DNA from: a virus
Length of the DNA: 64,000 bases
Direction: 5' to 3' (one strand)
IMG/VR virus record: IMGVR_UViG_3300027785_002095
The notes below the pieces were generated by a model. The model made no database searches. It saw only the letters and a list, made by a program, of their open reading frames with translations, and was not told the origin of the DNA. Shown in pieces: positions 33,382 through 51,396 of this stretch; the stretch's first letter is position 1; every line of letters starts with the position of its first letter. Made by a program: the position numbers and the translations under genes.

Positions 33382-34593
33382 ATGCGTTTACGTGAACTAT
33401 TATCTGAAGTCAAAATTGACAACCAACAAGGTGCTGGAGCAGTTCCTTATAACCAAGATGTAGACTACTTTGGTCTGCGTGTTATGATGAAGCCCAGCAC
33501 ATTCCTACGACTGGCTGCTCCGCTTGGACAAGAGCACAGTGCTGAACTAGAAAAATACATTGCCGACGGTGGTGCCATTGGTGCTCCATTCTTAGAAATT
33601 AAAATCCCGCAGGAATGGGATGACGGCGACTATTCCAAGACTGCACAAGTTGCAGGGCACGAAGGTCGCAATCGTATGACAGCCGTTAAAAAGCTAGAAG
33701 GCGATGCTCCTATTGAAGTACACATTTTCCCTCGCGGTGGCTATCGTGCCCGTGACATTACTCCTGAATTTCGTGCGGCATTGGTACGTGGACTACAAGC
33801 TGAAAAAGCAACCAACATTGTTGCTGGGCCACTATTTGAGGAAGGCTTAGAAGAAGGCTGGAAAGATACAGTTGCTAACTTAGCCATTGCAGGTGGCATT
33901 GCCGCAGGCGGCATGGGTGGCATGATGGCCAAGCAGTCGGCACAGGATTACTTCAAAGAGCCAACTGCTGTAGTAGCACAGGCGCCAGCAGTTAAAAAAG
34001 CAGAAGCACCAAAAACGTTTGCACAAGCTAAAGCAAGCCCGGCGGCTCCGGCCGCATTAAAAGCAGAACCAAAGAAAATTGATGTCAAGACAATTACTAG
34101 CAATCCGCTCGAAGGGGTACTATTAAAAGTTGCCAAAGCATCTGGACTCCAAGGTTCCGAGCTTGCTGCATTTATGGCGCAATGCGCTCACGAAACACTA
34201 GACTTTAAACGTCTAACAGAATTTGGCGGTAGCTTAGACTTCCGCAAATATGATCCAAAATACGCCCCAAAGAAGGCCAAAGCACTGGGTAATAAACAAG
34301 TCGGGGACGGCGCAAAGTATAAAGGTCGTGGATTTATTCAAATCACAGGACGTTGGAATTACAAGCAAGCTGGCGAAGAATTAGGCTTACCATTGGAAAA
34401 GCATCCCGAGTTAGCAGAAGATCCTGCTACAGCGGCTAAAATTGCTGTTTGGTTTTGGAAGCATCGTGTACAACCAAACGTAGATAACTTTAAAGATACT
34501 ACTAGTGTTACAAAACAAGTCAACCCGGGTATGCGTGGTTTAGAACAGCGCAAAGATAACTTTGCTGATTACATGCAAGTTGCAATGCGATAG
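33382..34593 (+). CDS. GH19 lysozyme/chitinase-like domain fused to an N-terminal domain carrying the MRLRELLSE leader
   Basis: C-terminal FMAQCAHETLDF...YKGRGFIQITGRWNYKQAG...AAKIAVWFWKHRV (GH19 signatures) after an A/P/K-rich linker. Confidence 0.7.
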   Translation: MRLRELLSEVKIDNQQGAGAVPYNQDVDYFGLRVMMKPSTFLRLAAPLGQEHSAELEKYIADGGAIGAPFLEIKIPQEWDDGDYSKTAQVAGHEGRNRMTAVKKLEGDAPIEVHIFPRGGYRARDITPEFRAALVRGLQAEKATNIVAGPLFEEGLEEGWKDTVANLAIAGGIAAGGMGGMMAKQSAQDYFKEPTAVVAQAPAVKKAEAPKTFAQAKASPAAPAALKAEPKKIDVKTITSNPLEGVLLKVAKASGLQGSELAAFMAQCAHETLDFKRLTEFGGSLDFRKYDPKYAPKKAKALGNKQVGDGAKYKGRGFIQITGRWNYKQAGEELGLPLEKHPELAEDPATAAKIAVWFWKHRVQPNVDNFKDTTSVTKQVNPGMRGLEQRKDNFADYMQVAMR

Positions 34594-34684
34594 GCGGTCG
34601 TTTTGAACTGCTACAAGTTCAGCAAAAAAACTAAATATAATACACGGTTTTAGATGATTCTGAGCCATCAATAAAGGAAAAGAA

Positions 34685-34876
34685 ATGTTATCATTTTTAA
34701 AGAAGCTATTTGGGTTTGGTACTACACCAGCAGTCGAGGCTCCGTATAAAGTCGAAGTGCAAGTTGTAGCCGAAACAGTTACTGAAGTTGCGCCAGTTGT
34801 AGTTGAAAAGAAGCCACGTGCCAAAAAGCCGGCTGCTCCTAAAGCACCACGTGCTAAGAAGGCTCCTAAGGCATAA
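34685..34876 (+). CDS. small basic K/A/P-rich protein (histone H1-like tail)
   Basis: C-terminus KKPRAKKPAAPKAPRAKKAPKA. Confidence 0.45.
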   Translation: MLSFLKKLFGFGTTPAVEAPYKVEVQVVAETVTEVAPVVVEKKPRAKKPAAPKAPRAKKAPKA

Positions 34877-34878
34877 TA

Positions 34879-35694
34879 ATGTTTTTAACCGATATCACTC
34901 CACGAGTCACTGTATATGAATCCCTGCGTCAAGTAAACGGACGTTGGGCCCGTGTCAATACGGAAACAAATACAGTCGTGGAGTTTTATCATGGTGACAA
35001 TACCATTATCGTCGAAGGCGGTAATGTTTTCAAGAGTGCAGAAGGCGAAGAACTAACACAGCGCATCAATCAAGCTGATGTAGAACCAACTATCCGCTTT
35101 CTTGAAAAGATTACAGGAATCCCGCATTTTGAACATGCGCTAGGTACTACTGGCAAGACTCCCACAAGCGGCGACTTGGATATTGGTATGCCAGCAGGCG
35201 TTACCAAAGAAGAATTGGTTGCCAAGCTAAGCCAATGGACATCACAACACGGTGAAGATTCAAAAGCATTCATTCGAAAGTCTGGCATCAGTGTACATTT
35301 TAAAACACCAATTGGTGGCAGTCCTGAACGTGGTTATGTACAAACTGACTTTATGTTTGTGCCCAATTTGGAGTTTGCAAAGTTTGCAATGGCTGCTGAT
35401 CCGCACAGCAAGTACCGCGGCGCCCACAAACAAATTCTACTAAGTAGCATTGCTAAAGTACTAGGCTTCACTTGGAATCCAACTACTGGCTTAATTGATC
35501 GTGCGACTAAGAAGTTAGTTGACAACGGTGACGATCCAGATCATATTGCCAAGTTATTGTTTGGAGCAGGTGCGGATCGTACCAGTTTAACCAGTGTAGA
35601 AGCTGTACTTGCAGCACTAGAAAATAATCCCGAACGCGAAGCGTTGTTAGCAGATGCCAGAGAAACACTAGGTCGCGATGGAGTTGAGATTTAA
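34879..35694 (+). CDS. hypothetical protein
   Basis: 271 aa. Confidence 0.5.
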   Translation: MFLTDITPRVTVYESLRQVNGRWARVNTETNTVVEFYHGDNTIIVEGGNVFKSAEGEELTQRINQADVEPTIRFLEKITGIPHFEHALGTTGKTPTSGDLDIGMPAGVTKEELVAKLSQWTSQHGEDSKAFIRKSGISVHFKTPIGGSPERGYVQTDFMFVPNLEFAKFAMAADPHSKYRGAHKQILLSSIAKVLGFTWNPTTGLIDRATKKLVDNGDDPDHIAKLLFGAGADRTSLTSVEAVLAALENNPEREALLADARETLGRDGVEI

Positions 35695-35695
35695 A

Positions 35696-37201
35696 ATGTT
35701 ATTACGTCATATATTTGAAACTAGAATTGAAGTGTTAATTGAGGGTCGTGGTTTAGCGGCTCGAGTTCCTGGTGAGCAATTTAAGAATCCGCAAGGCGAT
35801 GTAATTACATTCCAAAGTTTGGACTTCTTTCCGGAGCGCGGCCAATTTGCTTCTGCTGAAGAAATGCAAGCAGAGATTGCTGCACAAGGTAAGGGTAAAA
35901 ATATTCATTGGAGCAACAATACCAATTCTGGTATGTTGGCCTTTGCCATTGCTACATTCACTGACGAGAACAAGAAAGCGTATTACCTAGGACGCTATTA
36001 CAGAACAATCAGTCCTAATCGTGTACAAAACGATTGGCAACATAAAGACATTCCCGGCGGCTTTAAGTACCAAAGCAAAGCAGGACAAAAAGAAAATACA
36101 GGCTATAAGCCCAGCGAAGTATTAACACAGTTCAAAGACAACACAGTTGATTCTATCTCTAGACAAATTATTACCAAGTTTGGCCAAGGAAGCGATGAAG
36201 TTGTTGCTTTGAACGCATTTTTAAAAGCCAGCAAATTTCCTATTACATTCCCCAAGGGAAACATAAACATGACAGCGTTTCGCGACTACTTCTGCGAAAT
36301 GCTACAGCCAATGGCATTGCTAATGGACAAGCCAATCAAAGGTAATGCCGGGGAAGCTGCTGACATCTTCTTTGGCAGCGGGGGCTACAAAGGTAGCACT
36401 ATCAGTTTCAATAATAGCGTAACAGGTGGCTTATATGACAGCTTGTTGGTTAGCCCCGAAGGTAAGCAAATTAAGTTGTCAAGCAAGGGTGCAAGCGGTG
36501 CAAGTGCAAGTGTTGTTAACTTGCTAAAGAGTATTAACGAATTAAAGGTTGCTCCCAAAGGCGCAGTATTGCTTGAAAAGCACAAAGTAGTCGTTGAGAT
36601 TCTAAAGGACATTGATGCTAAAGGCCACTTTGGTGCTCCGTTAAAACTAGCAGTAGACTACAAAATGATCAGTCCCGATGATGCTACATTTGCAATGACA
36701 TTAAAGAAGTATGGTCCCGATGATCAAATTGATTGGGCCGGCCACACTGCATTAGAAACATTGTACAATGGACGCAAGGCACGTGATATGCGTGTTATTA
36801 TTCCAATGGAACACATGATCAGTGCTATTGCTTATAAAGTTGCTGCTCACGTTAATGCCAATACAAACTTTGGCAATGCTGCGTCTGACATTTTAAACCA
36901 CAGTGCATTGGTGCAGATGTACACAAATACATCCGAAACCAAGGACACAATCAGCATTGACAACTTCAATGCGGTATACCCAAGCGAAACTGTTACAGGC
37001 GTTTTACTTGATGCTAGTAAAGCATATATGAGTACGCAGGGTAAGGGCAACTTTACCTTCAAGATTCTCAAGAATGGTGCCAAAGAAGCCGATATAGCAG
37101 ATGACGGTGATGCTACTGTTGCAGTACCGCAGCCTAAGAAAATTGTGCCTAAGGACAAGTCTGCAATGACTGTTACTAGCACCAATCGAGAGTTGAAGTA
37201 A
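35696..37201 (+). CDS. hypothetical protein with MLLRHIFETR leader
   Basis: ATG 1 nt after upstream stop (track ORF begins at 35678). Confidence 0.5.
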   Translation: MLLRHIFETRIEVLIEGRGLAARVPGEQFKNPQGDVITFQSLDFFPERGQFASAEEMQAEIAAQGKGKNIHWSNNTNSGMLAFAIATFTDENKKAYYLGRYYRTISPNRVQNDWQHKDIPGGFKYQSKAGQKENTGYKPSEVLTQFKDNTVDSISRQIITKFGQGSDEVVALNAFLKASKFPITFPKGNINMTAFRDYFCEMLQPMALLMDKPIKGNAGEAADIFFGSGGYKGSTISFNNSVTGGLYDSLLVSPEGKQIKLSSKGASGASASVVNLLKSINELKVAPKGAVLLEKHKVVVEILKDIDAKGHFGAPLKLAVDYKMISPDDATFAMTLKKYGPDDQIDWAGHTALETLYNGRKARDMRVIIPMEHMISAIAYKVAAHVNANTNFGNAASDILNHSALVQMYTNTSETKDTISIDNFNAVYPSETVTGVLLDASKAYMSTQGKGNFTFKILKNGAKEADIADDGDATVAVPQPKKIVPKDKSAMTVTSTNRELK

Positions 37202-37264: not shown

Positions 37265-37750
37265 ATGAAAAAACTTCTATTACTACTATTAATCCCAATT
37301 TGTGGCTATGCTGCCGAGTTGCAACATGGATTCAATAGCCCGTCGTTTTCCGGAATTGGTTACAGTACTCACATATTAACTATTAAACAGTTAGAAGACC
37401 AAGGCAAGCAAAATAACAAAAATGTAGCAGATTCATTGAAGGCGCAGGCCGAGCGTGATGCTGCTACAAATCCACAGGCACAGTTCGTTGCCAATCTACA
37501 AGCCCGCATATACTCGCAATTAGCAAAACAATTAACTGATAGCTTATTTGGAACAGCTGGTACTCCAGCTTGCACCAGTGCAACTGCTGGCGCAGTGTGC
37601 GGAGAGATTCCTGATATTGCTGGCAATAACATTACTTGGAAACTTGGCGTAGGTGCAGACACTGGTATGATTGTAATCACTATCCAGAATCTAACCGATA
37701 GTTCTCAGGTTACTATTATGAAGGTACCAAGCGGTACGTTTGCATTTTAA
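37265..37750 (+). CDS. csgF: CsgF-like curli assembly protein
   Basis: signal peptide MKKLLLLLLIPICGYA; mature AELQHGFNSPSFSGIGYS vs E. coli CsgF GTMTFQFRNPNFGGNP; QARIYSQLAKQLTDSLFG vs QAIQSQILGGLLSNI. Confidence 0.6.
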   Translation: MKKLLLLLLIPICGYAAELQHGFNSPSFSGIGYSTHILTIKQLEDQGKQNNKNVADSLKAQAERDAATNPQAQFVANLQARIYSQLAKQLTDSLFGTAGTPACTSATAGAVCGEIPDIAGNNITWKLGVGADTGMIVITIQNLTDSSQVTIMKVPSGTFAF

Positions 37751-38573
37751 TATGATCAAACTTATAGTATCCTTATTAGCAGTGCTTTTAGTAAGCGGGT
37801 GTGCGTCAACATCTATTATTAAAGGAAAACTAACCAATGAACAATTTGATGCTCCTGTGGTAGAACAGAACATATATCTAAAACAACAAAGCGGCGACTT
37901 AGCAGGACCAGCTGGTGGTCCATTAACTGTTGCAGTATATGGCTTCAAAGACCTAACAGGGCAACGTAAAAGTTTAACTAACATTGCAAGTTTAAGTTCG
38001 GCTGTGACACAAGGAGCAGAGAACTTTTTAATTAAGTCGTTGCAGGACGTTGGCAGTGATAAAAAATGGTTCATTGTTGTTGAACGTGTTGGCTTAGAAA
38101 ATTTAATTAAAGAGCGTCAGATGATTCGCCAGATGCGTGAGCAGTATCAGGGTAAAGATGCAAAGTTGTTACCACCAATGATTTTCGCTGGAATCATTAT
38201 GGAAGGCGGTATAATTGGTTATGATTCAAATACACTAACAGGCGGCAATGGATTTCGATTACTGGGCATTGGCGCATCAACTCAATACCAAAGTGATACT
38301 GTTACAATAGTTCTTAGAACAGTGAGTGTAAGTACCGGCGAAGTGTTAACGTCGGTTACAATTACAAAAACAGTATTAAGCTATATGGACAAACTGGGAG
38401 TATTAAAGTTTGTCAACGTAGGAACCGAGGCAGTCGAAGCAGAAGTCGGAACCAGTGTAAATGAAAGTATCAATAAAGCAGTGTCTGTTGCTATTCAAGC
38501 CGCTGTTGTAGATACTATTAAAGAAGGCGCTCGTAAAGGGCATTGGGGATTCGCAAAAGAATCAATAAAGTAA
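37740..38573 (+). CDS. csgG: CsgG curli secretion channel lipoprotein
   Basis: lipobox LLVSGC; LTVAVYGFKDLTGQRK, KWFIVVERVGLENLIKERQMIRQMREQ, IIMEGGIIGYDSNTLTGGNGFRLLGIGASTQYQSDTVTIVLRTVSVSTGEVLTSVTITKTVLSY are colinear with E. coli CsgG. Confidence 0.85.
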   Translation: MHFNMIKLIVSLLAVLLVSGCASTSIIKGKLTNEQFDAPVVEQNIYLKQQSGDLAGPAGGPLTVAVYGFKDLTGQRKSLTNIASLSSAVTQGAENFLIKSLQDVGSDKKWFIVVERVGLENLIKERQMIRQMREQYQGKDAKLLPPMIFAGIIMEGGIIGYDSNTLTGGNGFRLLGIGASTQYQSDTVTIVLRTVSVSTGEVLTSVTITKTVLSYMDKLGVLKFVNVGTEAVEAEVGTSVNESINKAVSVAIQAAVVDTIKEGARKGHWGFAKESIK

Positions 38574-38678
38574 GATCTTGTGCATAGATCTTGCTTGTAT
38601 GTTATATACTCTGGCGATTCAGAGTCTAAGGGCATAGCCCAGAGGAGCGTGAAATTTAACATTTCGCGAACTTATATT

Positions 38679-39422
38679 ATGTTTGAAAGAATTAAACTAC
38701 ACAGATACATTGCAGTATGTGCCGTTGCTTTTTATGGCAGCATGGCACTGGCACAAGTAACAACGCCCACTGGCGCAAATAGTGTTTACATTGAGCAAAT
38801 TGGTAACAGCAACAATATTTTAATTGAGCAAGTTGGCAATGCAAACAACATTGGCGGAACAGCAAATGCTACACCCAGCAGTTCCAACTATGGCACAATC
38901 ACTGGCAACACCAACACACTTACATTACGTCAAACTGGCGACGGCAATTTGAGTCAGTACAATATCAAAGGCACAGACAACATTTATTCATTGGTTATGA
39001 CCGGCAGTGGAAACAAGACAAAGTTAGATGCTGGCGATGCTAATACAAACAATCTGCGCAATTCAATAACCGAAACCATCATTGGTGATACTAACACTGT
39101 TACACAAACATTAGTGGGTAATGATATTACAAGTACATTGGCAATTACAGGAAATACAAACATTGTTAATAAAGAGATAAAGAGCAGCAATGCATCAAGT
39201 ACTGTGACAATTATGGGTGGAAACAATACACTTGACATTCAACAAGTGGACATTTCAGGCGCACGTGGACATTTGTTAACTCAAACAGTTGCTGGAGACT
39301 TTAATACTATTACTACTCAACAGCAAGGTACAATCGACACCACTGTTAATATTTCCACTGCTGGCAATTCAAATCAAATTGTTGTTAGAACAAGTAGCTC
39401 GGCTATCGTCAATCCTCGTTAA
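38679..39422 (+). CDS. secreted curlin-repeat protein (CsgA/CsgB-like)
   Basis: signal peptide MFERIKLHRYIAVCAVAFYGSMALAQV; about 9 imperfect repeats N-x-x-x-I-x-Q-x-G-N (NSVYIEQIGNSNN, ILIEQVGNANN, NTLTLRQTGDGN, NIYSLVMTGSGN, NTVTQTLVGNDI, NTLDIQQVDISG...); track ORF starts upstream at 38580. Confidence 0.6.
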   Translation: MFERIKLHRYIAVCAVAFYGSMALAQVTTPTGANSVYIEQIGNSNNILIEQVGNANNIGGTANATPSSSNYGTITGNTNTLTLRQTGDGNLSQYNIKGTDNIYSLVMTGSGNKTKLDAGDANTNNLRNSITETIIGDTNTVTQTLVGNDITSTLAITGNTNIVNKEIKSSNASSTVTIMGGNNTLDIQQVDISGARGHLLTQTVAGDFNTITTQQQGTIDTTVNISTAGNSNQIVVRTSSSAIVNPR

Positions 39423-39427
39423 GTATT

Positions 39428-40534
39428 ATGAAGCTACTGCTAATTGCATTGTTGCTTATTAGTCACAGTCCACTTCATGCAGGGCCTGCTATTGGTGCAG
39501 TGTCAGAAAATAAAGGAACCAGCTGTGAAATCGAGCGCGGCTCATCTAAATTATCTGGACTTAAAGGTGCCGCAGTTGAAAGCATGGACACATATCGCAC
39601 TGGCGGGTGTGTTAGCGATATTGTATTCAAAGATGATACCAAGGTTAAGATAACAGAAAATAGTCGCTTGGTAATCGACGACTTTGTGTACGATCCAAAG
39701 AAGGGTGATGCGGGCAAGTTGGTAATGCGAGTAGGCATGGGCACTGTTCGTTATGCGTCGGGACAAATTGCCAAACAAAATCCACAACAAGTTTCCATTA
39801 AGACGCCCACTGCAAATATTGCAGTTCGCGGCACAGACTTTACAATGACAGTTGACGAGACTGGTCGTAGCCTTGTGGTGCTGCTACCAAGTTGCAAAGA
39901 TCAAATTGATGTTAAGACATATGAGCTTGAGGAGAATCGTTGTAGAGTTGGCGAGATACTTGTTTCAACTGGGGCAGGCGATGTACTATTGTCACATCCG
40001 TTCCAGGCCACATACGTTATAAGCAATTCTGTAGCGCCATCTACTGCATTTATTATGCAGACTGTTGAAAGTAAACTAAACAATAATTTAATACTTGCAC
40101 AGCCCAAAGAAGTTGGCCGAGTACTTCGTGACGTGTCGGGTAAGACTAAACGTGACGAAGAATTGGAAGCATTAGAAACAGAGGCTGCCCGTCGATTAGC
40201 ACAGGCAGTATCAGACAAGCGAGAAGATCTTGAACACGCACGAATTTTAATATTAGAAGATATGGCAGTAAAAGCTGGTTGCAATTCAGCAACTAGCGTG
40301 TGTGTCAGTTGGGATAATCCGTCTGAATCAGCAATACAAAATCGTGGCAAAGGTATAGCATTCCGTAATACTGAAAATACGCACTATGCCGAAGTTAAAA
40401 CACAAGGCTATGCATCAAACACCACGGTTGCAATTAGCCACAACGATGTTGCAGCTTCAACTATCATTGGTGACGGCAGTGTTGGCGGGAATGTGATTAG
40501 TATACTTCAAAACGTTGGAGTAGCAAAGAGATAA
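39428..40534 (+). CDS. secreted protein with FecR-like beta-sandwich block
   Basis: signal peptide MKLLLIALLLISHSPLHA; QVSIKTPTANIAVRGTDFTMTVDETG. Confidence 0.5.
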   Translation: MKLLLIALLLISHSPLHAGPAIGAVSENKGTSCEIERGSSKLSGLKGAAVESMDTYRTGGCVSDIVFKDDTKVKITENSRLVIDDFVYDPKKGDAGKLVMRVGMGTVRYASGQIAKQNPQQVSIKTPTANIAVRGTDFTMTVDETGRSLVVLLPSCKDQIDVKTYELEENRCRVGEILVSTGAGDVLLSHPFQATYVISNSVAPSTAFIMQTVESKLNNNLILAQPKEVGRVLRDVSGKTKRDEELEALETEAARRLAQAVSDKREDLEHARILILEDMAVKAGCNSATSVCVSWDNPSESAIQNRGKGIAFRNTENTHYAEVKTQGYASNTTVAISHNDVAASTIIGDGSVGGNVISILQNVGVAKR

Positions 40535-40697
40535 TGGGCGAGCTACATCTGTTACACATGTATCAGGCCTGGCAGCAAGGCAATGATAACTATGCACGTG
40601 ATTGGCAAAGATTTGTCAGTCTGGCCGCAGTATGGAACAATACATCGTCGGACAACCTGCTATGTGAATTGAAAAAGTACAATTGGTTCAAAACATG
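40533..40697 (+). CDS. small coupled ORF (54 aa)
   Basis: TAATGG overlap with upstream stop and ATGA overlap with the downstream start. Confidence 0.25.
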
Positions 40698-41627
40698 AAA
40701 CTTTTATTTTGTTGGATACTGATGTTTGTTACATCATTGAGCACCGCAGCTACAGTGTCACAGGCAATGAATGTAAGCAGCCAGGGCAGCGACTACATAT
40801 TTGTTTATCGTGGTAATAACCCAACCGAATTTGATGCGCTGATAGCATATAATCCAGTTGGATGGACTGCTACATGTAGCTCAGGGCAGGCATGCACAGG
40901 ACAAACAGCTACAATTATTAGTTGGGCAAGACCGGATCCAGATTACTTGTTTTTATACACAAAGAACAGCGACGGCACTGCATATATTCCCTCTTCTGGT
41001 GCATATTATTCATTCTCAAGTCCACCTGCTGCATGTTGCAGTGCTGGATCACCATCTGTCTTTGTGCCAAACAGCTATAATACAACTCGACTACAAACAT
41101 ATAATAGTAGGCCCATTGACCAGCGTAATGCGCAGATATACATTGAACAAATTGGATCAAATAATATCACTACAATTGAGCAGACCGGGACTAAAGATAA
41201 CCATGCAGAGTACGCCAGCAATGGTAATAACAATACTGTAAACATTTTACAAACAGGCGATGCTACTACCTCAAACTACACAGATCTTGGAATAATTGGC
41301 AATGCCAATACAGTGTCAATTACGCAACAAAGCACGGGCGGAATCAAAGGTGCGTTTGTAAAAATAAATGACAACAACAATAGCTTATTATTATCACAAA
41401 AAGATAGCGGTAGCCATTATGCAGAAGTAACACTAAGCGGCAGCAACAAGAATGTAGATATTTTACAGCAAGGTTCTGCAGGCCATGTGGCAAGTGTAGG
41501 CCTAACTGGAAATCCAACTGATTTAAGTTTAACACAATCTGGCTCAACACAGCACTTCTACAGCATACAATTCAATTGTGCCACAGCAGGTGGTTGCGCT
41601 AAGATTACAGTCCAACAAGGACAGTAA
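40683..41627 (+). CDS. secreted curlin-repeat protein 2
   Basis: signal peptide MKLLFCWILMFVTSLSTAATVSQA; repeats NAQIYIEQIGSNN, ITTIEQTGTKDN, NTVNILQTGDAT, NTVSITQQSTGG, VDILQQGSAG, LSLTQSGSTQ; likely ATG at ~40695. Confidence 0.6.
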   Translation: MVQNMKLLFCWILMFVTSLSTAATVSQAMNVSSQGSDYIFVYRGNNPTEFDALIAYNPVGWTATCSSGQACTGQTATIISWARPDPDYLFLYTKNSDGTAYIPSSGAYYSFSSPPAACCSAGSPSVFVPNSYNTTRLQTYNSRPIDQRNAQIYIEQIGSNNITTIEQTGTKDNHAEYASNGNNNTVNILQTGDATTSNYTDLGIIGNANTVSITQQSTGGIKGAFVKINDNNNSLLLSQKDSGSHYAEVTLSGSNKNVDILQQGSAGHVASVGLTGNPTDLSLTQSGSTQHFYSIQFNCATAGGCAKITVQQGQ

Positions 41628-41643
41628 GCTAAATATCTATACT

Positions 41644-43638: not shown

Positions 43639-43658
43639 CATTACGTAAGTGGTAAGCT

Positions 43659-44444
43659 ATGCTAATACGTGAATTACTTGAGGCTGACATTAAATTGGGC
43701 AGCAATAATAATGCAGCTCGAGCATGGATTGATAAAGTCTATGCCAAGTACCCGCACACTATGCAAAACAATCACGTTATGGTATGGGGTTCAGGTGACG
43801 ACCAGCAGTTTGCTATGTTTGAACTTGTTCCAAGTTTTAGTAAGCGCGGCGCAGTTGAAGTCAAATGGTTCCAAGCATATCCATTGCGTCAAGGTGTTGG
43901 CTCTAAAGCAATGAAAGAATTGCAAACGATGGCCCGTGAAGATGGTATTGCACTTACGCTATTCCCGTGGGACAAGGGACAAGTTAGCCAAGCCAAGCTA
44001 ACAAAGTTCTATCGAGGACAAGGCTTTAAGCCAACTGTTAAAGGTGGCAAAGCAATGGCATGGGAAACAAGTGTGGCAGAAAGCTCTGGTGTTATGTTTT
44101 CAAAAATAATGGGACACGAAACAAGCGCAGAGGCTGCACAACAAATTCAACAACATGGATTTAAGAAATCACATACTGGTATATTCTTCAATGTAGGAGA
44201 TCAGAATTACTCAGGTGGCGGTTATGGTGGCACAGTAGTAATGGCAAAAGTTTCGGGACCTGCTGATGACATTCTAAATTTAGATGATGACAATGACTTG
44301 CCGGACGAGTTAGATGAGTTTGCGGACGGTGAGGAAATTGCTAACTACGCCCGTAGCGAAGGATATTGGGCCTGGACCGATGGTGTGCAATTTGCTGTAC
44401 TTGACCCAAGTCATATACAAGTTGTTAAGCAAGGTGTGGCGTAA
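43659..44444 (+). CDS. GNAT-like protein with MLIRELLEA leader
   Basis: VKWFQAYPLRQGVGSKAMKELQTMAREDGI resembles GNAT motif A. Confidence 0.5.
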   Translation: MLIRELLEADIKLGSNNNAARAWIDKVYAKYPHTMQNNHVMVWGSGDDQQFAMFELVPSFSKRGAVEVKWFQAYPLRQGVGSKAMKELQTMAREDGIALTLFPWDKGQVSQAKLTKFYRGQGFKPTVKGGKAMAWETSVAESSGVMFSKIMGHETSAEAAQQIQQHGFKKSHTGIFFNVGDQNYSGGGYGGTVVMAKVSGPADDILNLDDDNDLPDELDEFADGEEIANYARSEGYWAWTDGVQFAVLDPSHIQVVKQGVA

Positions 44445-45115
44445 ACTGTAAGTTGCCAATAACGTCATCTTTGAAGATTGGTCCTACTACAGCAGTCGTA
44501 AGTACTGCACAATAATCATGTGTAACAAAAGGTTAGCAGGCCAGTAAATATTCTGCCGGGTAAGCATCTAAGTGTGTGCCGATGCCCAATTCTGTGAGTA
44601 CACCACGGACTCGTATTCACTACCCGTCTTCGTACGGATGCCTTAAAACGGTGCCCCATTGTGGTTTCACGTTTGAATACTAGTATACAGGTTGAGTGCA
44701 GCGCAAGTTGACTTAGTTCCAATGCATCCATAACAACATATGACACCGAAGTTGTTTTAAAAATCGTAATAGGTCGGGTAAGGTACAGAGCCCAGAGATG
44801 CGGAAACCAAAACACCTATTGTCTCAGTGTGGCTGATCGTCTAAGCAAACATCTCATCCGGCATCCTTTACAGGGTGTCGTATGGCCACCCAATCTAGCA
44901 AAACTATTCATCTTAGTTCAAATTTTTCGTGTTAACCAAAACACAATACACAAATAATTAACCCGCAAAATTATGGAACTATTATACTTGCACCGTAAAA
45001 TTTTATGATGCCGCAAAAATATGGTTAACAGATGAACGTACACTATATAGGACTCTAAGGGTAACTACGAGTCGTTCTGGTCCAGACTTATTTGACTTGA
45101 CTTTCAGTCAAAAAT
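44445..45115. other. 670-bp non-coding island: mixed-GC structured core plus AT-rich promoter region with CCGCAAAA(T)TATGG direct repeat
   Basis: only a 99-aa antisense ORF; several short hairpins; CCGCAAAATTATGG and CCGCAAAAATATGG 46 nt apart; CTGGTCCAG palindrome and TTGACT-N17-TAAATT before the ATG at 45131. Confidence 0.35.
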
Positions 45116-47167
45116 GTGTTAAATTATAGTATGAAAAACTTTATTCCCGGTCCATTGAGTATTGCTTGGGTAGCAGTTACGGCTGTTATACTTGTGGCAT
45201 TAAAAATCTCTAACCCTGTGCCTGTTGAAAGCATTCAACTCAAAGGCTTTGATGCACTACTGTCAGTTGACACTCCTGTTGATTCTGATAGTGTTGTTAT
45301 AGTCGACATCGGCGAAGCCAGTATAGAACGCCAGGGACAGTGGCCGTGGCCTCGGCGAGACCTAGCTCGAGCAATTGAACAAATACAAGAACTGGGTGCT
45401 GCCGCAATTGTTGTTCCTGTTATTATGAGTGAAGCAGACCGTTTTGGCAGCGATCGAGATCTAGTTAAAGTACTTGGCCGCACCAACAGTGTTATTGCCC
45501 AAGCACCTACTACGCAAAACAAACGTCCTGACGCAGTTCGTCGTGGTGTTGCTGTTATAGGTGGTAATCCGTTAGAATGGGTGTACTCTTGGCCTGGCGC
45601 ACTAAGTCCTTACCGGCCATTGGCTAATGCAGCCGCTGGAGTAGGTACAACTGTTGTTGCTCCTGAAGTAGATGGTGTTGTTCGACGCATGCCACTTATT
45701 GTGGGCGTAGGCGAAGAAATTTATCCCAGCTTGCCATTAGAAGCACTTCGTGTTGTTACTGGACAACAAAGTTATCAAGTTAAAATGAGTTCAGCAGGAA
45801 TTGAAAAAGTTCGTATTGCTGGACAACCTGTTATCACCACAGACGAACGTGCCAGAATCTGGTTGCGTTGGAACAAGAACTTCACACGCTATGAACTATC
45901 TGAATTGGCCAATAAAAACGTAAATCTGCAGGGTAAAGTGGTAGTGTTAGGCTTGTCAGTAGAAGGCCTAGGTGGTATTATTGCTACACCGCGTGGTGAA
46001 GCCTGGGCACACGATATTCAAGCACAAACTGTACAAACATTGCTTGACGGTGATAGCCCTGTACGCCCTGCATTTGCCAATGCAATCGAATTGATAACAA
46101 TTGTGCTTATAGCGTTTCTACTAATTTTCGCGATGCCTAGATTGCCTTTTTGGGCAGTGGGCACAGCACTATTTGCAACCATTGGCAGTGTTGTGTGGGG
46201 TAGCTTTTTTGCGTGGAGCAACTATAGTCAACTATGGGACATTTACTCTTTAACGTTTGCAGCCATTGTACTGTATGGGCATGCACTATTTGCACGTTTC
46301 GTACAAGAGTTCAAGCAAAAGCAACAAATCAAGAAACAGTTTGGTACATACCTAAGCCCTGCACTGGTTGCTAAACTACAGAAGAATCCAGAGCTGTTAC
46401 AGCTAGGTGGCGACGAGCGCGAGTTAAGTATTATGTTCACTGACGTTCGTGGCTTTACTACAATCTCAGAACACTATGGTCGGGATGTACAAGGACTTAC
46501 CAAGATTATGAATCGTTACATGACTGCAATGACTCGCAAGATCATTGACAATAACGGCACATTAGACAAGTACATTGGTGATGCACAGATGGCATTTTGG
46601 AACGCACCAGTTGACGAAGCACGTCACGCACATATGGCTGTTAAGACAGCATTAGAAATGATGGAGAGTTTAGATGAATTTAATCGTGAAGTTACAGCAG
46701 AAGGTATACCAGCTTTTGGTATGGGTCTTGGGATTAATAGCGCAGTTGTTGTGGTCGGTAACATGGGATCTGATCAGCGTTTTGACTATACTTGTCTGGG
46801 CGATGGCGTCAATCTTGCGTCCCGCCTTGAGGGACAAAGTAAGCCTTATGGCGTTAGAATTGTACTGGGACAGCGAACTGCTGAATTGGTTCAGGACCAA
46901 TACCCGACGATAGAATTAGATTGCATTGCAGTTAAAGGTAAAACAGTTGGAGTAAGAATCTTTACATTAGGCACTACCAATATTACCCTGCATGACACAT
47001 ATTTGCAAGCATACTACCGTGGCGATTGGACTCGTGCTATTCGTCAATGTGAAAAGTTAATTGGTTTAGATAACGAACTAAAGCAGTATTACGAAAATAT
47101 GCTGGAACGTATGCGTGAAGGCTTGCCAGCTAATTGGGACGGCACATATAGAGCAACAAGTAAGTAA
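45116..47167 (+). CDS. CHASE2-sensor class III adenylate/guanylate cyclase
   Basis: N-terminal TM + extracytoplasmic CHASE2-like region (GQWPWPR), later TMs, cyclase core FTDVRGFTT...DKYIGDAQMAFWNAP...GINSAVVVVGNMGS...YTCLGDGVNLASRLEG. Confidence 0.75.
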   Translation: MLNYSMKNFIPGPLSIAWVAVTAVILVALKISNPVPVESIQLKGFDALLSVDTPVDSDSVVIVDIGEASIERQGQWPWPRRDLARAIEQIQELGAAAIVVPVIMSEADRFGSDRDLVKVLGRTNSVIAQAPTTQNKRPDAVRRGVAVIGGNPLEWVYSWPGALSPYRPLANAAAGVGTTVVAPEVDGVVRRMPLIVGVGEEIYPSLPLEALRVVTGQQSYQVKMSSAGIEKVRIAGQPVITTDERARIWLRWNKNFTRYELSELANKNVNLQGKVVVLGLSVEGLGGIIATPRGEAWAHDIQAQTVQTLLDGDSPVRPAFANAIELITIVLIAFLLIFAMPRLPFWAVGTALFATIGSVVWGSFFAWSNYSQLWDIYSLTFAAIVLYGHALFARFVQEFKQKQQIKKQFGTYLSPALVAKLQKNPELLQLGGDERELSIMFTDVRGFTTISEHYGRDVQGLTKIMNRYMTAMTRKIIDNNGTLDKYIGDAQMAFWNAPVDEARHAHMAVKTALEMMESLDEFNREVTAEGIPAFGMGLGINSAVVVVGNMGSDQRFDYTCLGDGVNLASRLEGQSKPYGVRIVLGQRTAELVQDQYPTIELDCIAVKGKTVGVRIFTLGTTNITLHDTYLQAYYRGDWTRAIRQCEKLIGLDNELKQYYENMLERMREGLPANWDGTYRATSK

Positions 47168-47171
47168 ATAC

Positions 47172-47879
47172 ATGATGATGCAATCCAATTACTTCTTTCC
47201 TTTAAACTTAAAAATTGATTCAGATGAAAAGCTCGACTTTACAAATACTGTATTACATGACCTTATTGAACAGTTTACAACATCTAATTCAGATCTAACT
47301 CACATTGGATCTAATTTAGCAATGCAATTTGCTCGCACCATTGACAATGTTAACGCAGTACTACATCCAATTGGGCTTATGGTTTACAAACCCACTATGT
47401 TTATGAGCAGCGGTAACATTATTGGCAAAAATATTCACTGTGATGGCATGATCGATCATGCAGGCAATATTGGAATGTTAGAAGCAAGAATTAACTTATA
47501 TGAAATGTCATTGGGACAAAATTCTATCGAATGGTGGGATCAGTTACCTAATACTATTCCAGTTGACGACGGAAATGCGCCTTGGTGGAAAACCCCCAGA
47601 CTGCTTAAAAATCAGGCAAGCGCACACCCGTTTGTTATTTGTTTGCCACCATTTAGACGCGACTTACGAAGCGGAAAAATAACTTGGGATCAAATTCCAA
47701 CTCCAAATTTTAGCATTGCTATATCAAGTCCAAGTGCTGTGGTACGTACCAATCTGCCACACCACATTATTCAACAAGACGGGGTGCGTGTTACATTAAG
47801 TTTGAGTATTGCATTCCAATCTGGTGAATTAAACGGTGTATGGCAACATATTCAAAACAATATCAATCAACTACAATGA
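47172..47879 (+). CDS. 2OG-Fe(II) oxygenase-like protein, tandem paralog 1
   Basis: IHCDGMIDH (H-x-D), HHIIQ, RVTLSLS (R-x-S); track ORF starts at 47115. Confidence 0.4.
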   Translation: MMMQSNYFFPLNLKIDSDEKLDFTNTVLHDLIEQFTTSNSDLTHIGSNLAMQFARTIDNVNAVLHPIGLMVYKPTMFMSSGNIIGKNIHCDGMIDHAGNIGMLEARINLYEMSLGQNSIEWWDQLPNTIPVDDGNAPWWKTPRLLKNQASAHPFVICLPPFRRDLRSGKITWDQIPTPNFSIAISSPSAVVRTNLPHHIIQQDGVRVTLSLSIAFQSGELNGVWQHIQNNINQLQ

Positions 47880-48586
47880 CACAACAATTAGACTTTGACT
47901 TTTCACAAAAGCCGGCCCGCGATCCAGGTTACTTTTTTCCATTGACTCTACGTTTAGATCCTGTAGAGAAGGCGAACTTTATTAAAACAGCATTAGTACC
48001 GCACAGAGACAAAATAGAAGGTGCAGGATACGGATTATCGAATGTTGGCAACGCCGATCAGAGTTTCCCTGTTACTATTGCCAACACAAATGAGTTCTTA
48101 AAACCGCTTGGACTTAAAACAAGACGAATGACATTATTTTTAAGTGCCAAGAGTCAGACCAGTTGGGTAATACATTGCGATGGAGTCCGCGCACCTTCGG
48201 GTCCTGCTATGCTTGAAGCACGATTGAGTTATTACGAGCTGGCTGAAGAACCCGGAGCAATACGTTGGTGGAACTATTTGCCAAATAAAGGCATTGCTAT
48301 TTTTCCGGCAAACGAACAATTGGGTACACAAGAGAGAATCAGTTGCTTTGCCGATTGTGCTGAACAACTCAAAGACGATAAACTAAATTGGGCAGATATA
48401 CCGGCCCCAGATTTCAGTGTAGTATCGTCTGCGCCAAGTGCAATTTTACGCACCAATCGATTCCATCATGTAATACAAGGTCCGGGATTGAGAGTAACAG
48501 TTAGTTGTCAATTAGTATTTCCCGACGGCAGTCCAGAAGGTGTATGGGAACACATACAAAACAATATTCATAAATTAGGAGTTTAA
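47876..48586 (+). CDS. 2OG-Fe(II) oxygenase-like protein, tandem paralog 2
   Basis: YFFPLTLRLD/ HCDGV/ MLEARLSYYEL/ LRTNRFHHVIQGPGLRVTVS/ VWEHIQNNI parallel the upstream paralog; ATGA overlap at MTQQLDF. Confidence 0.4.
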   Translation: MTQQLDFDFSQKPARDPGYFFPLTLRLDPVEKANFIKTALVPHRDKIEGAGYGLSNVGNADQSFPVTIANTNEFLKPLGLKTRRMTLFLSAKSQTSWVIHCDGVRAPSGPAMLEARLSYYELAEEPGAIRWWNYLPNKGIAIFPANEQLGTQERISCFADCAEQLKDDKLNWADIPAPDFSVVSSAPSAILRTNRFHHVIQGPGLRVTVSCQLVFPDGSPEGVWEHIQNNIHKLGV

Positions 48587-48587
48587 C

Positions 48588-48971
48588 GTGTTATATTTTG
48601 CATATGGTATGAATACCAACAACAATGCTATGTCTAAGACAAGCAAAAGATTAGGACCAGCAGTACTATTAGACTACAAGTGGGAAATGTTACAGTTTGC
48701 CAATGTATTTGAAACGCCAGGTGTTACAGCAATTGGCATATTATGGGAAATTGATGAAAATGAATTGCAAGACCTAGACATACGAGAAGGGTATCCAACA
48801 TTTTACAATCGCGTTATGTCGTCAGTAGAATACAATGGAGAACTAACACAGGCCTGGGTATATTATATGACACCGCACTATAGAACAAAGCTGACTGGTT
48901 GTAAGCCAAGTCAGCATTATTACGATTCAGTGGTTGAAGGGTACGCCCAAAACGGGATAGTTATTTCTTAA
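48588..48971 (+). CDS. gamma-glutamyl cyclotransferase-like (AIG2/GGCT fold)
   Basis: N-terminal LYFAYGMNTN resembles YxxYGSNM. Confidence 0.45.
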   Translation: MLYFAYGMNTNNNAMSKTSKRLGPAVLLDYKWEMLQFANVFETPGVTAIGILWEIDENELQDLDIREGYPTFYNRVMSSVEYNGELTQAWVYYMTPHYRTKLTGCKPSQHYYDSVVEGYAQNGIVIS

Positions 48972-49293
48972 CTGGCTTAGTATCAATGTTAACAGCGTCG
49001 CGGAACTTTTCATCAGCTTCGCGATCTACTTTTTGCTGTTCTACTACACGTTCACCATCAATAATCTTGCCGCGTAAGTGTAGTACAACATCAACCTTTT
49101 GATTTAATCGTATTAAATCGTTGTCTAACATACGCACACGATCAATCAGCGCAATAAGCGTATTACTAGCAGCACTTAGCACTGGCTTAATGTCCTGTGT
49201 TGCCCATTGCCATACGTAGAATATCAAGTATCCCATGCCGCCAGCAGCCACAATTGGGAAGCCGTATTTGTTAATTAAGTTCGCTAAATCCAT
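48961..49293 (-). CDS. BhlA/UviB-like holin-type membrane protein
   Basis: hydrophobic YGFPIVAAGGMGYLIFYVWQW then coiled-coil LIALIDRVRMLDNDLIRLNQKVDVVL; paralog of the 49695..49976 gene. Confidence 0.45.
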   Translation of the reverse strand: MDLANLINKYGFPIVAAGGMGYLIFYVWQWATQDIKPVLSAASNTLIALIDRVRMLDNDLIRLNQKVDVVLHLRGKIIDGERVVEQQKVDREADEKFRDAVNIDTKPVKK

Positions 49294-49504
49294 AATTTCT
49301 GTGCCCTGTTAATAAATCCTCATCTTCATAAACTGGCAAGCATACATGCCCCCAAGTCAATAAAAATACCGAGTGTGCTTCACCTTCGGGAATCCAAAAG
49401 CGTGTGCGATTCAGATGTGCTTCAAATTTAACTTTGTGTTCTTTAATCCAACGAATCACATTTATAAACTCTGGGTTCTGAGTCATTACACAATACTGTA
49501 TCAT
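49271..49504 (-). CDS. hypothetical protein (77 aa)
   Basis: translationally coupled within the minus-strand cassette. Confidence 0.4.
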   Translation of the reverse strand: MIQYCVMTQNPEFINVIRWIKEHKVKFEAHLNRTRFWIPEGEAHSVFLLTWGHVCLPVYEDEDLLTGHRNYGFSELN

Positions 49505-49695
49505 TTTTTAATATCTTCGCCAATGTCGCGGACCAGACTAGTAAGAGAATCTACTTTAACCAGCATCGCACAGCCATTTACATTGACAACTTTAAAGTAG
49601 TCGCCAGCCCGCCAGCCTAATCGATCAATGTTTAATTCTTTGTCTAGAATAATTCTGTCTGGGTACAAATCCCAGTCGTATTCATAGTGCTTCAT
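49501..49695 (-). CDS. AbrB/MazE-like swapped-hairpin domain protein
   Basis: RIILDKELNIDRLGWRAGDYFKVVNVNGCAMLVKVD. Confidence 0.35.
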   Translation of the reverse strand: MKHYEYDWDLYPDRIILDKELNIDRLGWRAGDYFKVVNVNGCAMLVKVDSLTSLVRDIGEDIKK

Positions 49696-49976
49696 TAATC
49701 GCGTCTCGCATCGTTTTTACCGTCTGCTCGCGCAATACGTGATACATCGGGCTTTAAACCTAATGCATTGCTAACAATGGTGTCGATTCGGATAACATCA
49801 TGGTTCATTGTTTTGACACGATTGTCTAATGCTTCAATGATATTCTTTAAGCCACTGACACTGGAAGTAACACCAGCTAGAATGAACTTCAGTGTCAAAA
49901 ACACAAAGTATCCAGCGGCAATAGCGGCTGCAATTGGGAAGCCTACTTCTGCTACTAACTTGAAAAACTCACCCAT
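49695..49976 (-). CDS. BhlA/UviB-like holin-type membrane protein
   Basis: VGFPIAAAIAAGYFVFLT then IIEALDNRVKTMNHDVIRIDTIVSNAL. Confidence 0.45.
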   Translation of the reverse strand: MGEFFKLVAEVGFPIAAAIAAGYFVFLTLKFILAGVTSSVSGLKNIIEALDNRVKTMNHDVIRIDTIVSNALGLKPDVSRIARADGKNDARRD

Positions 49977-50019
49977 CTTGGCAATCCTTTATCTATGCTG
50001 CTATTTATTAAAATAGATC

Positions 50020-50038
50020 AAAAACAGGACCTGTTTTT
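50020..50038. promoter_or_regulatory. perfect palindrome AAAAACAGG-A-CCTGTTTTT in the divergent region
   Basis: read directly; 50 nt upstream of ATG 50089; could act as bidirectional terminator or operator. Confidence 0.35.
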
Positions 50039-50088
50039 GAAACGGTAAATAGAGCGAAGGTTATTGTGCAAAAACAATAAATATATCT

Positions 50089-51396
50089 ATGAAACTACGT
50101 GAATTAATAATGATGGAGGATGGTGACGCCAGTGTAGCAACCACGTCTAGCGACATCGCTACTGTGGCTTATCCTCTATTTGTACGTGGTCGAAGCAATA
50201 AAGAAAAACGCAAGAACGCACGTGCCGCTGTAGGACAAAAGTACGTTCCGGGTCCTAATGGAATTGGTACTGGTGTATTTGAAGGCACCTTAAACGAATT
50301 TGCTCCTGGTGCCGGAGATGACGGCGGGGGCGAGGATCCATACAAGTATCCTAAGCCAGAGCATTTTAGTCGTAGTATAGATTTCTTTGGTCGATTCGAA
50401 GCAGATCATTTTGATCGTGAAGACATGGATGACGCCAAGGGCGAGTTCAAAGGCTATTGGGATAAAGATCAAATTGCCTATTTCAAATTTGATAACCCCA
50501 AGCGCACAGGCAGCGATGACCCGGGTATGGGCTGGTATTATGAGCCCGAATCAACTGGTAGTGCTAGTGCTACAGCCGCACCTGCTGTTGACACGTCTGC
50601 ACAACGCAAGCAGCAAGAACTAGGCATGATTCGTGCGTTTTTAAAATCTGGCAATCGACCAAATCCAGACAGTCAAATTGGTCGATTGATGAAAAAACAT
50701 GGAATGGCAGAAGCACATGTATTAGATAATCAAAATGTCATCTATCGTTTAGATCGTGAAAACCCAATGAGCGATACTGAAGTAGCAGTGTTGGGTGGTG
50801 CTGGCCGTTATAGCTTAAAAGCTCTACGTGACAAAGCTCGTCGCGAAGCCGCAGAGTTAGCACAAGATCTAAGTGTAGAACACGGTGGCGCATTCCGTCG
50901 CAGTGCCGACAACATTAAACAACTAACAAACACAATAAATACTATCGTGGCAGCATACAATGAGCTAGCAAGATTAAGACGCAAAGGCGGACGCGGCAGT
51001 CGAGGCATCACTGATGAAGATGCTAATTTTATTAGAGAATGTATTCGTGTCGTAGAGCAAGCCACACAGAATTATCGCTTGATGGAAGGTTTAGTAAAAG
51101 AACCAGACCCTAAGGGATACGCTAAAAATACATTGACTAACCCCAAGTACACAGTTGTAGTAAATACACCTGGAGACTTAGATTGGTACAAAATTGGCAC
51201 GTATTGGAATAATAAAGTAGTTGATCCGCATGAATTTGGGCAAGACGACAGTGACACTGTGCTGGTTGCACAGGGTGCAGAAGAATATAAAGAAATGTTA
51301 GACAAAATTAAACGAATGGGTCTGACATACAAGATAATTGGCGGCACGAGTGATCAGCCAGAAATTCACGAAAAGAATAAAAAGGGATACAAATGA
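50089..51396 (+). CDS. hypothetical protein with MKLRELIMME leader
   Basis: 435 aa, charged. Confidence 0.5.
   Translation: MKLRELIMMEDGDASVATTSSDIATVAYPLFVRGRSNKEKRKNARAAVGQKYVPGPNGIGTGVFEGTLNEFAPGAGDDGGGEDPYKYPKPEHFSRSIDFFGRFEADHFDREDMDDAKGEFKGYWDKDQIAYFKFDNPKRTGSDDPGMGWYYEPESTGSASATAAPAVDTSAQRKQQELGMIRAFLKSGNRPNPDSQIGRLMKKHGMAEAHVLDNQNVIYRLDRENPMSDTEVAVLGGAGRYSLKALRDKARREAAELAQDLSVEHGGAFRRSADNIKQLTNTINTIVAAYNELARLRRKGGRGSRGITDEDANFIRECIRVVEQATQNYRLMEGLVKEPDPKGYAKNTLTNPKYTVVVNTPGDLDWYKIGTYWNNKVVDPHEFGQDDSDTVLVAQGAEEYKEMLDKIKRMGLTYKIIGGTSDQPEIHEKNKKGYK

Follow-up and report, generated by a model that had tools for sequence, protein, structure and literature searches.

Leader peptides of T4 type as probable capsid-targeting tags on candidate cargo proteins of an uncultured jumbo phage

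A leader shared by otherwise unrelated proteins

The 64-kb stretch of viral DNA analysed here (IMG/VR record IMGVR_UViG_3300027785_002095, termed the window; G+C content approximately 42%, with nearly all genes on the + strand) encodes several large proteins that begin with a similar short leader peptide. A sequence-only reading had listed five such N-termini and likened them to the capsid-targeting sequences (CTS) of phage T4. All five were found where it had placed them, at the genes starting at positions 33382, 35696, 41644, 43659 and 50089, and genes are named here by these start positions. Three of the starts (33382, 43659 and 50089) conform to M-(K/R/L)-(L/I)-R-E-L-(L/I); the start of 35696 is a looser fourth member. 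The core [LI]RE[LI][LI] has exactly three matches in all six frames of the window, each of which occupies codons 3–7 of a long open reading frame (ORF), those of 33382, 43659 and 50089. A relaxed form of the leader pattern matched exactly four ORF starts in the window, the same three and that of 35696, all of them belonging to proteins of at least 261 residues. The relaxed pattern also gave three matches in the Methylophilales phage Melnitz (141 kb) and seven in the Pseudomonas jumbo phage Paride (287 kb), mostly at small ORFs, a background of about one per 40–50 kb. It can be seen that the strict likeness lies far beyond chance, and that the relaxed pattern alone does not.

The proteins had been called otherwise unrelated, and an all-against-all BLASTP comparison agreed, with no match better than E = 0.3. 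The leaders of 33382, 35696, 43659 and 50089 are propeptide-like and 8–16 residues long, and the likeness does not extend beyond them. They end in LSE↓V (33382), LLE↓A (43659), LIE↓G (35696) and MME↓D (50089), where the arrow marks the predicted cut. Read from these sequences, the tag appears to be a short amphipathic peptide with the consensus M-(K/R)-x-x-(E/D/Q)-(L/I/F)-(L/I/V)-x-E, contained in the first 8–16 residues. A general start-context bias was one outcome that the sequence-only reading had named as contrary to its proposal. This is not what was found: leader carriers number four to seven of approximately 70 window genes, and there are promoter-proximal genes that lack the motif. The features of the tagged genes are collected in Table 1.

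Table 1. Tagged genes, predicted leaders, module boundaries and promoter-like boxes in the window. Arrows mark predicted cuts.
Feature	Position	Strand	Description
TAAATA box, T4 late-promoter-like	33372–33377	+	4 nt upstream of the 33382 ATG; conserved in orthologues
Putative cargo gene 1	33382–34593	+	403 aa: leader, ParB/Srx-like domain, junction, hydrophobic Gly/Ala-rich segment, Ala/Pro/Lys linker, GH19 muramidase
Leader MRLRELLSE	33382–33408	+	residues 1–9, predicted propeptide; predicted cut after E9 (L-S-E↓V)
ParB/Srx-like N-domain	33409–33843	+	residues 10–154, invariant GHEGRNR
Internal junction GLEE↓GWKD	33844–33855	+	predicted second cleavage site
Hydrophobic Gly/Ala-rich segment GWKDTVANLAIAGGIAAGGMGGMMA	33856–33930	+	membrane-anchor-like, read from sequence
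GH19 domain (chitinase class I / lysozyme-like)	34156–34476	+	residues 259–365; Pfam PF00182 E = 8.5e-13; PHROG endolysin families
Candidate cargo gene 2	34879–35694	+	271 aa; conserved domain from GGNVF after I-V-E46
Long predicted propeptide of 34879	34879–35016	+	ends I-V-E46
Putative cargo gene 3	35696–37201	+	501 aa; very large conserved family, >1200 proteins
Leader MLLRHIFETRIEVLIE	35696–35743	+	residues 1–16; predicted cut after E16 (L-I-E↓GRGL)
Candidate cargo gene 41644	41644–43638	+	664 aa, acidic, isoelectric point (pI) 4.5; start MKLRDSNPQNNRLAE (41644–41688); TAAATA box 41630–41635
Putative cargo gene 4	43659–44444	+	261 aa, weakly GNAT-like
Leader MLIRELLE	43659–43682	+	residues 1–8; predicted cut L-L-E↓AD
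TAAATA box	50078–50083	+	5 nt upstream of the 50089 ATG
Putative cargo gene 5	50089–51396	+	435 aa
Leader MKLRELIMME	50089–50118	+	residues 1–10
Internal conserved junctions of 50089	50290–50298; 50704–50712	+	LNE↓FAPG; MAE↓AHVL; same modules in larger proteins of relatives
Candidate cargo gene 51393	51393–55874	+	1493 aa; start MIRIRLINE↓G (51393–51419)

Leaders and module boundaries across relatives

The window proteins were compared with homologues and with related loci (labels such as L013, L160, L170 and L181 denote these). The gene at 33382 had been read as a GH19 lysozyme fusion, and its match to PF00182 bears this out; it joins two domains of disparate activity, one ParB/Srx-like and one GH19. 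Fourteen orthologues (82–89% identity) keep the start MRLRELL(S/A)E with synonymous changes only. The N-domain has 86 homologues, mostly stand-alone proteins of approximately 155 residues, and the leader boundary was counted in the 69 homologues that contain the anchor (V/Y)x(I/V)DN. P1, three positions before this anchor, is Glu in 63 of the 69, and P3 is I, L, V or F in 61 of those 63. The leader itself, from Met to Glu, is of 5, 6, 8, 9, 10 or 12–17 residues with a mode of 9, and examples include MRAKEFLKE↓V, MKPSEIVDE↓Y and MKINE↓V as well as T4-like 10-mers (MISFRQYLSE↓V, MKTFVEYISE↓V and MLSFKQYINE↓V). AlphaFold models are confident except at the extreme N-termini, where the predicted local distance difference test score (pLDDT) is below 50 for residues 1–6 of 33382 and residues 1–17 of 35696; the leaders of both proteins are therefore predicted by the models to be disordered.

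The second half of 33382 behaves in the same way. The module made up of GWKD, the Gly/Ala-rich hydrophobic segment and GH19 always follows (L/I/V)-x-E, whatever lies upstream. The boundary (L/I/V)-x-E↓GW(K/R)(D/E) is kept after the ParB-like domain (GLEE↓GWKD in the window) or another domain (DIEE↓GWRD in L181), and in L022/L024 the leader alone precedes the module (MRASEFIVEYKEVDE↓GWKD). The window also carries a second, stand-alone GH19 gene (59164–59796, 210 aa) that is approximately 40% identical to the GH19 part of 33382. It is this gene, rather than 33382, that is probably the true endolysin, and the GH19 domain of 33382 is likelier to be virion-borne because a leader, an anchor and a fusion are present.

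In the family of 35696, Glu stands directly before an invariant G(V/R)GL in 120 of the 120 members listed, and P3 is L, I, V, F or M. Leaders among these members are of 10–17 residues and typically read MRDILNLLDxxxITE↓G, and the family shows approximately 60% identity over its more than 1200 members. Public gene calls use an upstream ATG at 35678; the true start is 35696, because a stop codon directly precedes that Met in two orthologues. The start MLLRHIFETR that had been counted among the shared leaders is a looser member, with the conserved cut-like position after E16 (LIE↓GRGL) and not after E8. The neighbouring 34879 is probably a cargo gene too, judged by its family boundaries in relatives (MLLREVIAVRKVINE↓GGNVF in L170 and MILLE↓GGNAF in L166/L167). 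It has a weak homologue in Paride.

The description of 43659 as GNAT-like stood in weakened form: an orthologue in L159 matches Pfam Acetyltransf_1, at E = 0.0017, and PDB entry 6iuf matches 43659 at E = 0.0019, both weak. Sequence searches of PDB with the four cargo proteins otherwise gave nothing useful. The same domain is preceded in relatives by a leader, MLIRDLIE↓N (L159), or by an internal boundary, PVDE↓AD (L160) or EVIE↓SD (L170). For 50089, orthologue leaders read MKLRELI(M/V/I)(M/V)E, MRFRQIITTE and MKLSELHTIIE, and its modules recur inside proteins of 777–1391 residues in relatives, after (L/I)-x-E↓FAP and x-x-E↓AH(V/T)L. This protein had been called very acidic. Its pI is 6.25, on which the reading of it as a very acidic DNA mimic fails; the DNA-mimic idea in general found no support, and the acidic protein is 41644.

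The latter had been offered as a weaker fifth case. Its start is kept in orthologues as MKLRD(V/S)xPQ..(V/L)L(A/D/V)E↓Q, and it is a plausible, if weaker, member. Orthologues of 51393 begin MIRI(R/Q)L(I/V)(N/H)E↓G or MITLKILHE↓G, a pattern of M-I-x-x-x-L-(I/V)-x-E↓G; the residues that follow are also conserved, and the leader is indistinguishable from a conserved N-terminus. It is likewise a plausible but weaker member, and 41644 and 51393 are both probably cargo as well.

Modules that are separate genes in the window are joined in relatives. L170 (2127–6857) encodes a single polyprotein of 1577 residues which starts with a T4-like leader, MKSLNEYLNE, and joins at least five such modules, with the boundaries PMNE↓VTIDN before the N-domain, EVIE↓SD before the 43659 domain and ELFE↓PS before another module. 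The last of these boundaries is elsewhere a leader (MLIRELFE↓PN in L013). In L160, the nearest relative, the 43659 domain follows a different module. Between the window and its relatives, one domain is found behind different leaders and different domains behind one leader, and the gene complement behind the leaders varies even between near relatives (the window, L160 and L181). A Zeta-toxin kinase module (Zeta_toxin) is added in relatives (L166), and L164 and L173 adjoin terL. An assignment of the first module of L160, L170 and L181 (YVYHAS...GPGVYFA...DEIIVP) as an H-Y-E ADP-ribosyltransferase was supported by neither Pfam nor PDB search.

Clusters of tagged genes with such leaders are present in other jumbo phage contigs, L022/L024 and L180. 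The latter, from a different jumbo phage (ENA ERZ23499379 scaffold_5, 255 kb), has four neighbouring tagged genes at 7373–13483 that encode proteins of 150–519 residues, and its leaders MLTFKQYLNE, MISFRQYLSE, MKTFSQYIVE and MQRFSNYLTE are near-identical to the CTS of T4 internal proteins (IPs).

Predicted capsid targeting and its alternatives

Sequence comparison identifies the source of the window as an apparent uncultured freshwater jumbo myophage, akin to the Arenbergviridae (PA5oct/Paride); other jumbo phages whose head is of T4 type are more distant kin. Megablast of the region gave no match to cultured phages. Freshwater metagenome contigs carry proteins identical to those of the window and take the region further, on the left as far as a clamp loader and PhoH and on the right as far as a family-B DNA polymerase. 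With the clamp loaders of the Pseudomonas jumbo phages PA5oct and Paride this clamp loader shares 57% identity, and with those of Phosso, Atu_ph07 and XacN1 41–46%, and Paride shares the gene order clamp loader, PhoH, Clp-like ATPase, tail fibres and DNA polymerase. A metagenomic contig of 286,107 bp (JACCDH011050423.1; GCA_013558355.1) is syntenic with the window, and the window phage is therefore an uncultured jumbo phage of about the same size.

A prohead protease gene, for which the sequence-only reading had suggested a search, was found in relatives of the window phage and in neither the window nor contigs linked to it. The head module of Paride is in T4 order: portal, 0461, 0463, protease 0464, scaffold and major capsid protein (MCP). 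Paride_0464 is 43% identical to the gp21 of Melnitz and belongs to PF03420 (Peptidase S77). A second Paride protein annotated as a ‘head maturation protease’, Paride_0070 (L034 1637–2308; OR805295.1 51637–52308), is ClpP (Pfam CLP_protease, E = 8e-60). Head proteins themselves carry leaders of the same type. The gp67/68 slot of Paride is filled by Paride_0461, which begins MKINDIITE↓G, orthologues of it from 13 metagenomic head modules begin MKARDLLVE↓FYDP, and gp21-like proteases of related contigs start MRQNQILSE, MNNMILTE, MSTGRELLIE or MANKLYE. In the Ralstonia phage RsoM2USA, which also encodes a gp21-family protease, a tagged N-domain gene (gp385, MQTFKQFLSE↓D) lies directly beside the genes for portal (378), protease (379), scaffold (382, with ELLSE and ELTE sites) and MCP (383). 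Our reading of the T4 genome gives MKTYQEFIAE for IPII and IPIII, MAKINELLRE↓S for gp24, MNEPQLLIE↓T for gp21 and MLKEQLIAE↓A for gp22.

In T4, the internal proteins and Alt carry propeptides of 10–19 residues which direct them to the scaffolding core and which gp21 takes off (PMC9026906; PMC5694885). Within the CTS of IPIII, residues 4 and 7 matter most for targeting and residues 8 and 10 for processing, and Asp at position 10 blocks cutting and not targeting (PMC9026906; PMC5694885). The protease cuts after Glu and prefers I/L-x-E (PMC12991175), and experiments are cited in which the leader sufficed for prohead entry by a foreign protein (Mullaney and Black 1996, cited in PMC9026906). The window leaders MRLRELLSE and MKLRELIMME can be seen to fit the description of a T4 CTS closely. 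The likeness to T4 on which the sequence-only reading was built gained in substance, through modular leaders, a fixed (L/I/V/F)-x-E boundary, reuse of that boundary at junctions and the same type of leader on head proteins.

We consider it probable, from these sequence comparisons, that the leaders of the window cargo are capsid-targeting and processing tags of T4 type, and that the cargo is loaded into the capsid and injected. By analogy with T4, the tag would bind the scaffolding core and the protein would be built into the prohead, where a gp21-family prohead protease (Peptidase S77) would cut after the Glu of (L/I/V)-x-E. The same enzyme would cut the sites between modules, GLEE↓GWKD in 33382 and LNE↓FAPG and MAE↓AHVL in 50089, and the mature enzymes would be freed inside the head and later ejected with the DNA. 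The predicted cargo would comprise a ParB/Srx-like domain, a conserved 500-residue protein and a weakly GNAT-like protein, and the GH19 muramidase with its hydrophobic anchor may act as a cell-wall-opening ejection protein, distinct from the GH19 protein at 59164. The presence of the protease in the genome of the window phage, targeting, cleavage, ejection and the roles of the cargo are all inferred.

A broader proposal seems to us evenly balanced, namely that leader and (L/I/V)-x-E junctions together form a combinatorial effector delivery system, processed by the prohead protease and widespread in uncultured T4-related jumbo phages, one cargo family by itself having more than 1200 members. 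On this proposal enzyme modules would be freely exchanged, with a ParB/Srx-like domain, an anchored muramidase, acetyltransferase-like and nucleotidyltransferase-like domains, a Zeta-toxin kinase and possibly a nuclease as candidates, and they would be encoded either as singly tagged genes or as polyproteins cut inside the capsid.

Several points weigh against capsid targeting. No head gene, protease or scaffold is present in the window or in any contig tied to the lineage: phmmer and tblastn searches of all the loci collected, with the head proteins of Melnitz and Paride as queries, yielded none for the window or its flanking DNA, and none of 40 contigs related to the Paride protease is shared with the cargo-bearing contigs. 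The protease of the window phage is inferred from relatives with 40–57% identity in core genes. P3 in 50089 is Met instead of L, I or V (V/I or Thr in orthologues), and no TAAATA box stands upstream of 43659 or 35696. The motif (L/I/V)-x-E is short and common by chance; the argument rests on its position and not on its presence. Each folded domain could also begin with the conserved Glu, which would then not mark a cut.

We also weighed four other explanations, each of which accounts for part of the data, whereas none covers both the conserved position and the occurrence of the tag on head proteins and proteases. Of these, the one that survives best, although we regard it as unlikely, is that the proteins are targeted and cut as proposed and serve as assembly or core components, like T4 gp67, gp68 and gp22, which would be degraded or remain in the head, rather than as ejected effectors. 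Both the gp67-slot core protein and scaffold-like proteins bear the same tag, and the strong conservation of the 35696 family is what would be expected of an essential structural part. Set against this, the GH19, ParB/Srx-like and GNAT-like domains, and the Zeta-toxin domain in a relative, suit a role after ejection, and the gene complement varies between near relatives.

It is more doubtful still that the 5′ ends are alike as a scar left by cassette exchange, in which promoter and leader act as a recombination handle and the peptide has no present function. Such exchange would fit the shuffled modules and the differing genes behind the leaders in the window, L160 and L181, and T-even phages do have hyperplastic internal-protein loci with a conserved CTS (PMC9026906). 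However, a pure recombination handle would be kept in the DNA and not, as here, in the peptide with synonymous drift, and more than 180 diverged sequences, whose leaders differ in length, retain Glu at P1 with a hydrophobic P3. Handle and tag are in any case not exclusive, since the T4 CTS plays both roles.

We give little credence to a further alternative, that the tag is a cytoplasmic degron or maturation signal read by another protease or unfoldase. Candidates are encoded in the window and its relatives: Clp (ATPase at 2395–4656, with ClpP in relatives), the S8 subtilase (11907–13427) and a papain-like peptidase (29886–30560); moreover, Paride_0069, which starts MKIKEIILE, adjoins clpP. Yet the motif matches the known specificity of gp21 (I/L-x-E), and the tag is borne by head-module proteins, by T4 head proteins and even by the gp21-like proteases. 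Degrons, moreover, need neither a precisely placed Glu before each domain nor copies at internal junctions.

Late-promoter-like boxes lie upstream of the tagged genes 33382, 41644 and 50089 (Table 1), and further TAAATA or TAAGTA boxes are present at 20400–20405, 47161–47166, 55935–55940 and 59888–59893. They resemble the T4 late promoter TATAAATA and lie 1–8 nt before the ATG with no Shine-Dalgarno sequence between, so that little or no leader is predicted for the late mRNAs; behind the same box, T4 and Paride have an ordinary leader of approximately 25 nt that holds a ribosome-binding site. A similar box stands upstream of the gp67-slot gene in L126–L147. The least credible explanation, to which we give only the slightest chance, is that the shared start is such a nucleotide-level or initiation feature (a leaderless-mRNA signal or start-context bias) and not a protein tag: it draws on these boxes and on an octamer, TACGTGAA, common to codons 3–5 of 33382, 43659 and 50089, but 20411, 47172, 55946 and 59898 have a box-proximal start without the leader peptide, 43659 and 35696 have the leader without a box, and the motif recurs at internal junctions far from start codons. 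Because these four boxed genes lack the motif and these two tagged genes lack the box, the motif is not a by-product of promoter or start context. From one family to another the leader retains its residue pattern although its codons are unrelated, and selection on the leaders acts on the peptide and not on the DNA.

The virion proteins that a phage injects are the first weapons it brings against the defences of its host, and sequence makes them very difficult to recognise. Should the tag function as it does in T4, they could be found by a simple rule in a large and abundant group of uncultured jumbo phages: the phage has a gp21-family protease, and (L/I/V)-x-E closes either a short leader at the N-terminus or a junction between modules. 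It would further follow that the targeting and processing logic of T4 goes back much further than the T-even phages and is in wider use, that ‘polyvalent’ effectors can be matured by a capsid protease, and that natural address tags exist with which foreign proteins could be loaded into the capsids of other large phages. On the broader proposal of a delivery system, the tag would also be a sequence handle with which to predict the injected proteome of phages never cultured. T4 already exhibits the principle; new, as far as the literature consulted shows, are the lineage, the cargo and the recurrence of the site at module junctions, with polyproteins in relatives.

Neighbouring genes and comparison with known systems

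The window is clearly phage DNA, and its other genes encode, among others, tail fibres of collagen-like type, an S8 peptidase, a ClpA/B-like ATPase and a UvdE endonuclease. At 92–4656 the genes for IF-1, DnaJ, peptide deformylase and a 753-residue ClpA/B-like double-AAA ATPase are consecutive, with ClpP nearby in relatives. The papain-like C1 peptidase (kept in the 286-kb relative) and the S8 subtilase lie near tail-fibre genes. Three small paralogues (27160–29186; 144, 122 and 132 aa) have in common the motif DGDAATNPITITA..TIDG at the C-terminus and adjoin a 183-residue protein in a region rich in tail fibres. In the middle of the cargo island (37265–47167) is a curli-type secretion module (CsgF, CsgG, two curlin-repeat proteins and a FecR-domain protein) with a CHASE2 adenylate/guanylate cyclase; its proteins are 31–47% identical to those of Melnitz and of the pelagiphage HTVC008M, both otherwise unrelated to the window phage. 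Between gene 43659 and the cyclase gene, approximately 670 nt (44445–45115) are without a + strand ORF, and no Rfam family or tRNA was found in the window, this gap included. Two adjoining paralogous genes (47115–48586; 254 and 248 aa) are followed by one for a 127-residue protein at 48588–48971. Radical-SAM proteins at 55946–57436 and 61159–62622 flank proteins of 561 and 424 residues and the stand-alone GH19 gene, and further downstream on the same contig are UDP-glucose dehydrogenase and sugar-nucleotide enzymes.

The closest parallel to the tagged genes is the T4 CTS, likewise a short N-terminal propeptide on unrelated proteins that ends in (L/I)-x-E. The T4 sequence MKTYQEFIAE may be set beside MRASEFIVE, MKTFVEYISE and MISFRQYLSE of relatives, and gp24 MAKINELLRE beside MRLRELLSE of the window. 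In both cases tagged genes are clustered and their complement is variable, and the T4 cargo Alt is also a large enzyme. The differences are that the window phage is an uncultured jumbo phage outside the Straboviridae, and that most of its leaders are of 8–9 residues, with one family at 13–17. Its predicted cargo, moreover, consists mostly of large enzymes or multi-module proteins with extra junction sites, which reach the size of polyproteins of up to 1577 residues in relatives.

The internal virion protein gp16 of T7 and the ejection proteins of P22 contain a peptidoglycan-degrading domain and are ejected to help the DNA cross the cell wall. This matches the role predicted for the anchored GH19 module as a functional likeness only: the domain there is a lytic transglycosylase and not of GH19 fold, and these proteins are not known to have a CTS-type leader or proteolytic maturation.

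In phiKZ-like phages (phiKZ, 201phi2-1 and SPN3US) a protease related to gp21 cuts after Glu and strips the propeptides from inner-head ejection proteins, one of which has a transmembrane segment at its mature N-terminus (PMC5694885). There, P3 is small ((S/A/G)-x-E) and the propeptides mostly exceed 100 residues, whereas the window phage has a hydrophobic P3 and leaders of T4 length.

Polyvalent proteins, which join disparate domains in one polypeptide in phages and conjugative elements (Iyer et al. 2017, PMC5512222), combine ParB-like, peptidoglycan hydrolase, acetyltransferase and Zeta-toxin kinase domains, the same repertoire as here, and share with the window system a predicted delivery with the DNA and rampant domain shuffling. 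The fusion at 33382 is of this kind, and the L170 protein and L166, with its Zeta_toxin module, are larger examples in relatives. In the window, in contrast, the domains are mostly separate genes, each with its own address tag, and their release is predicted to occur through the prohead protease at (L/I/V)-x-E and not through in-built metallopeptidase domains.

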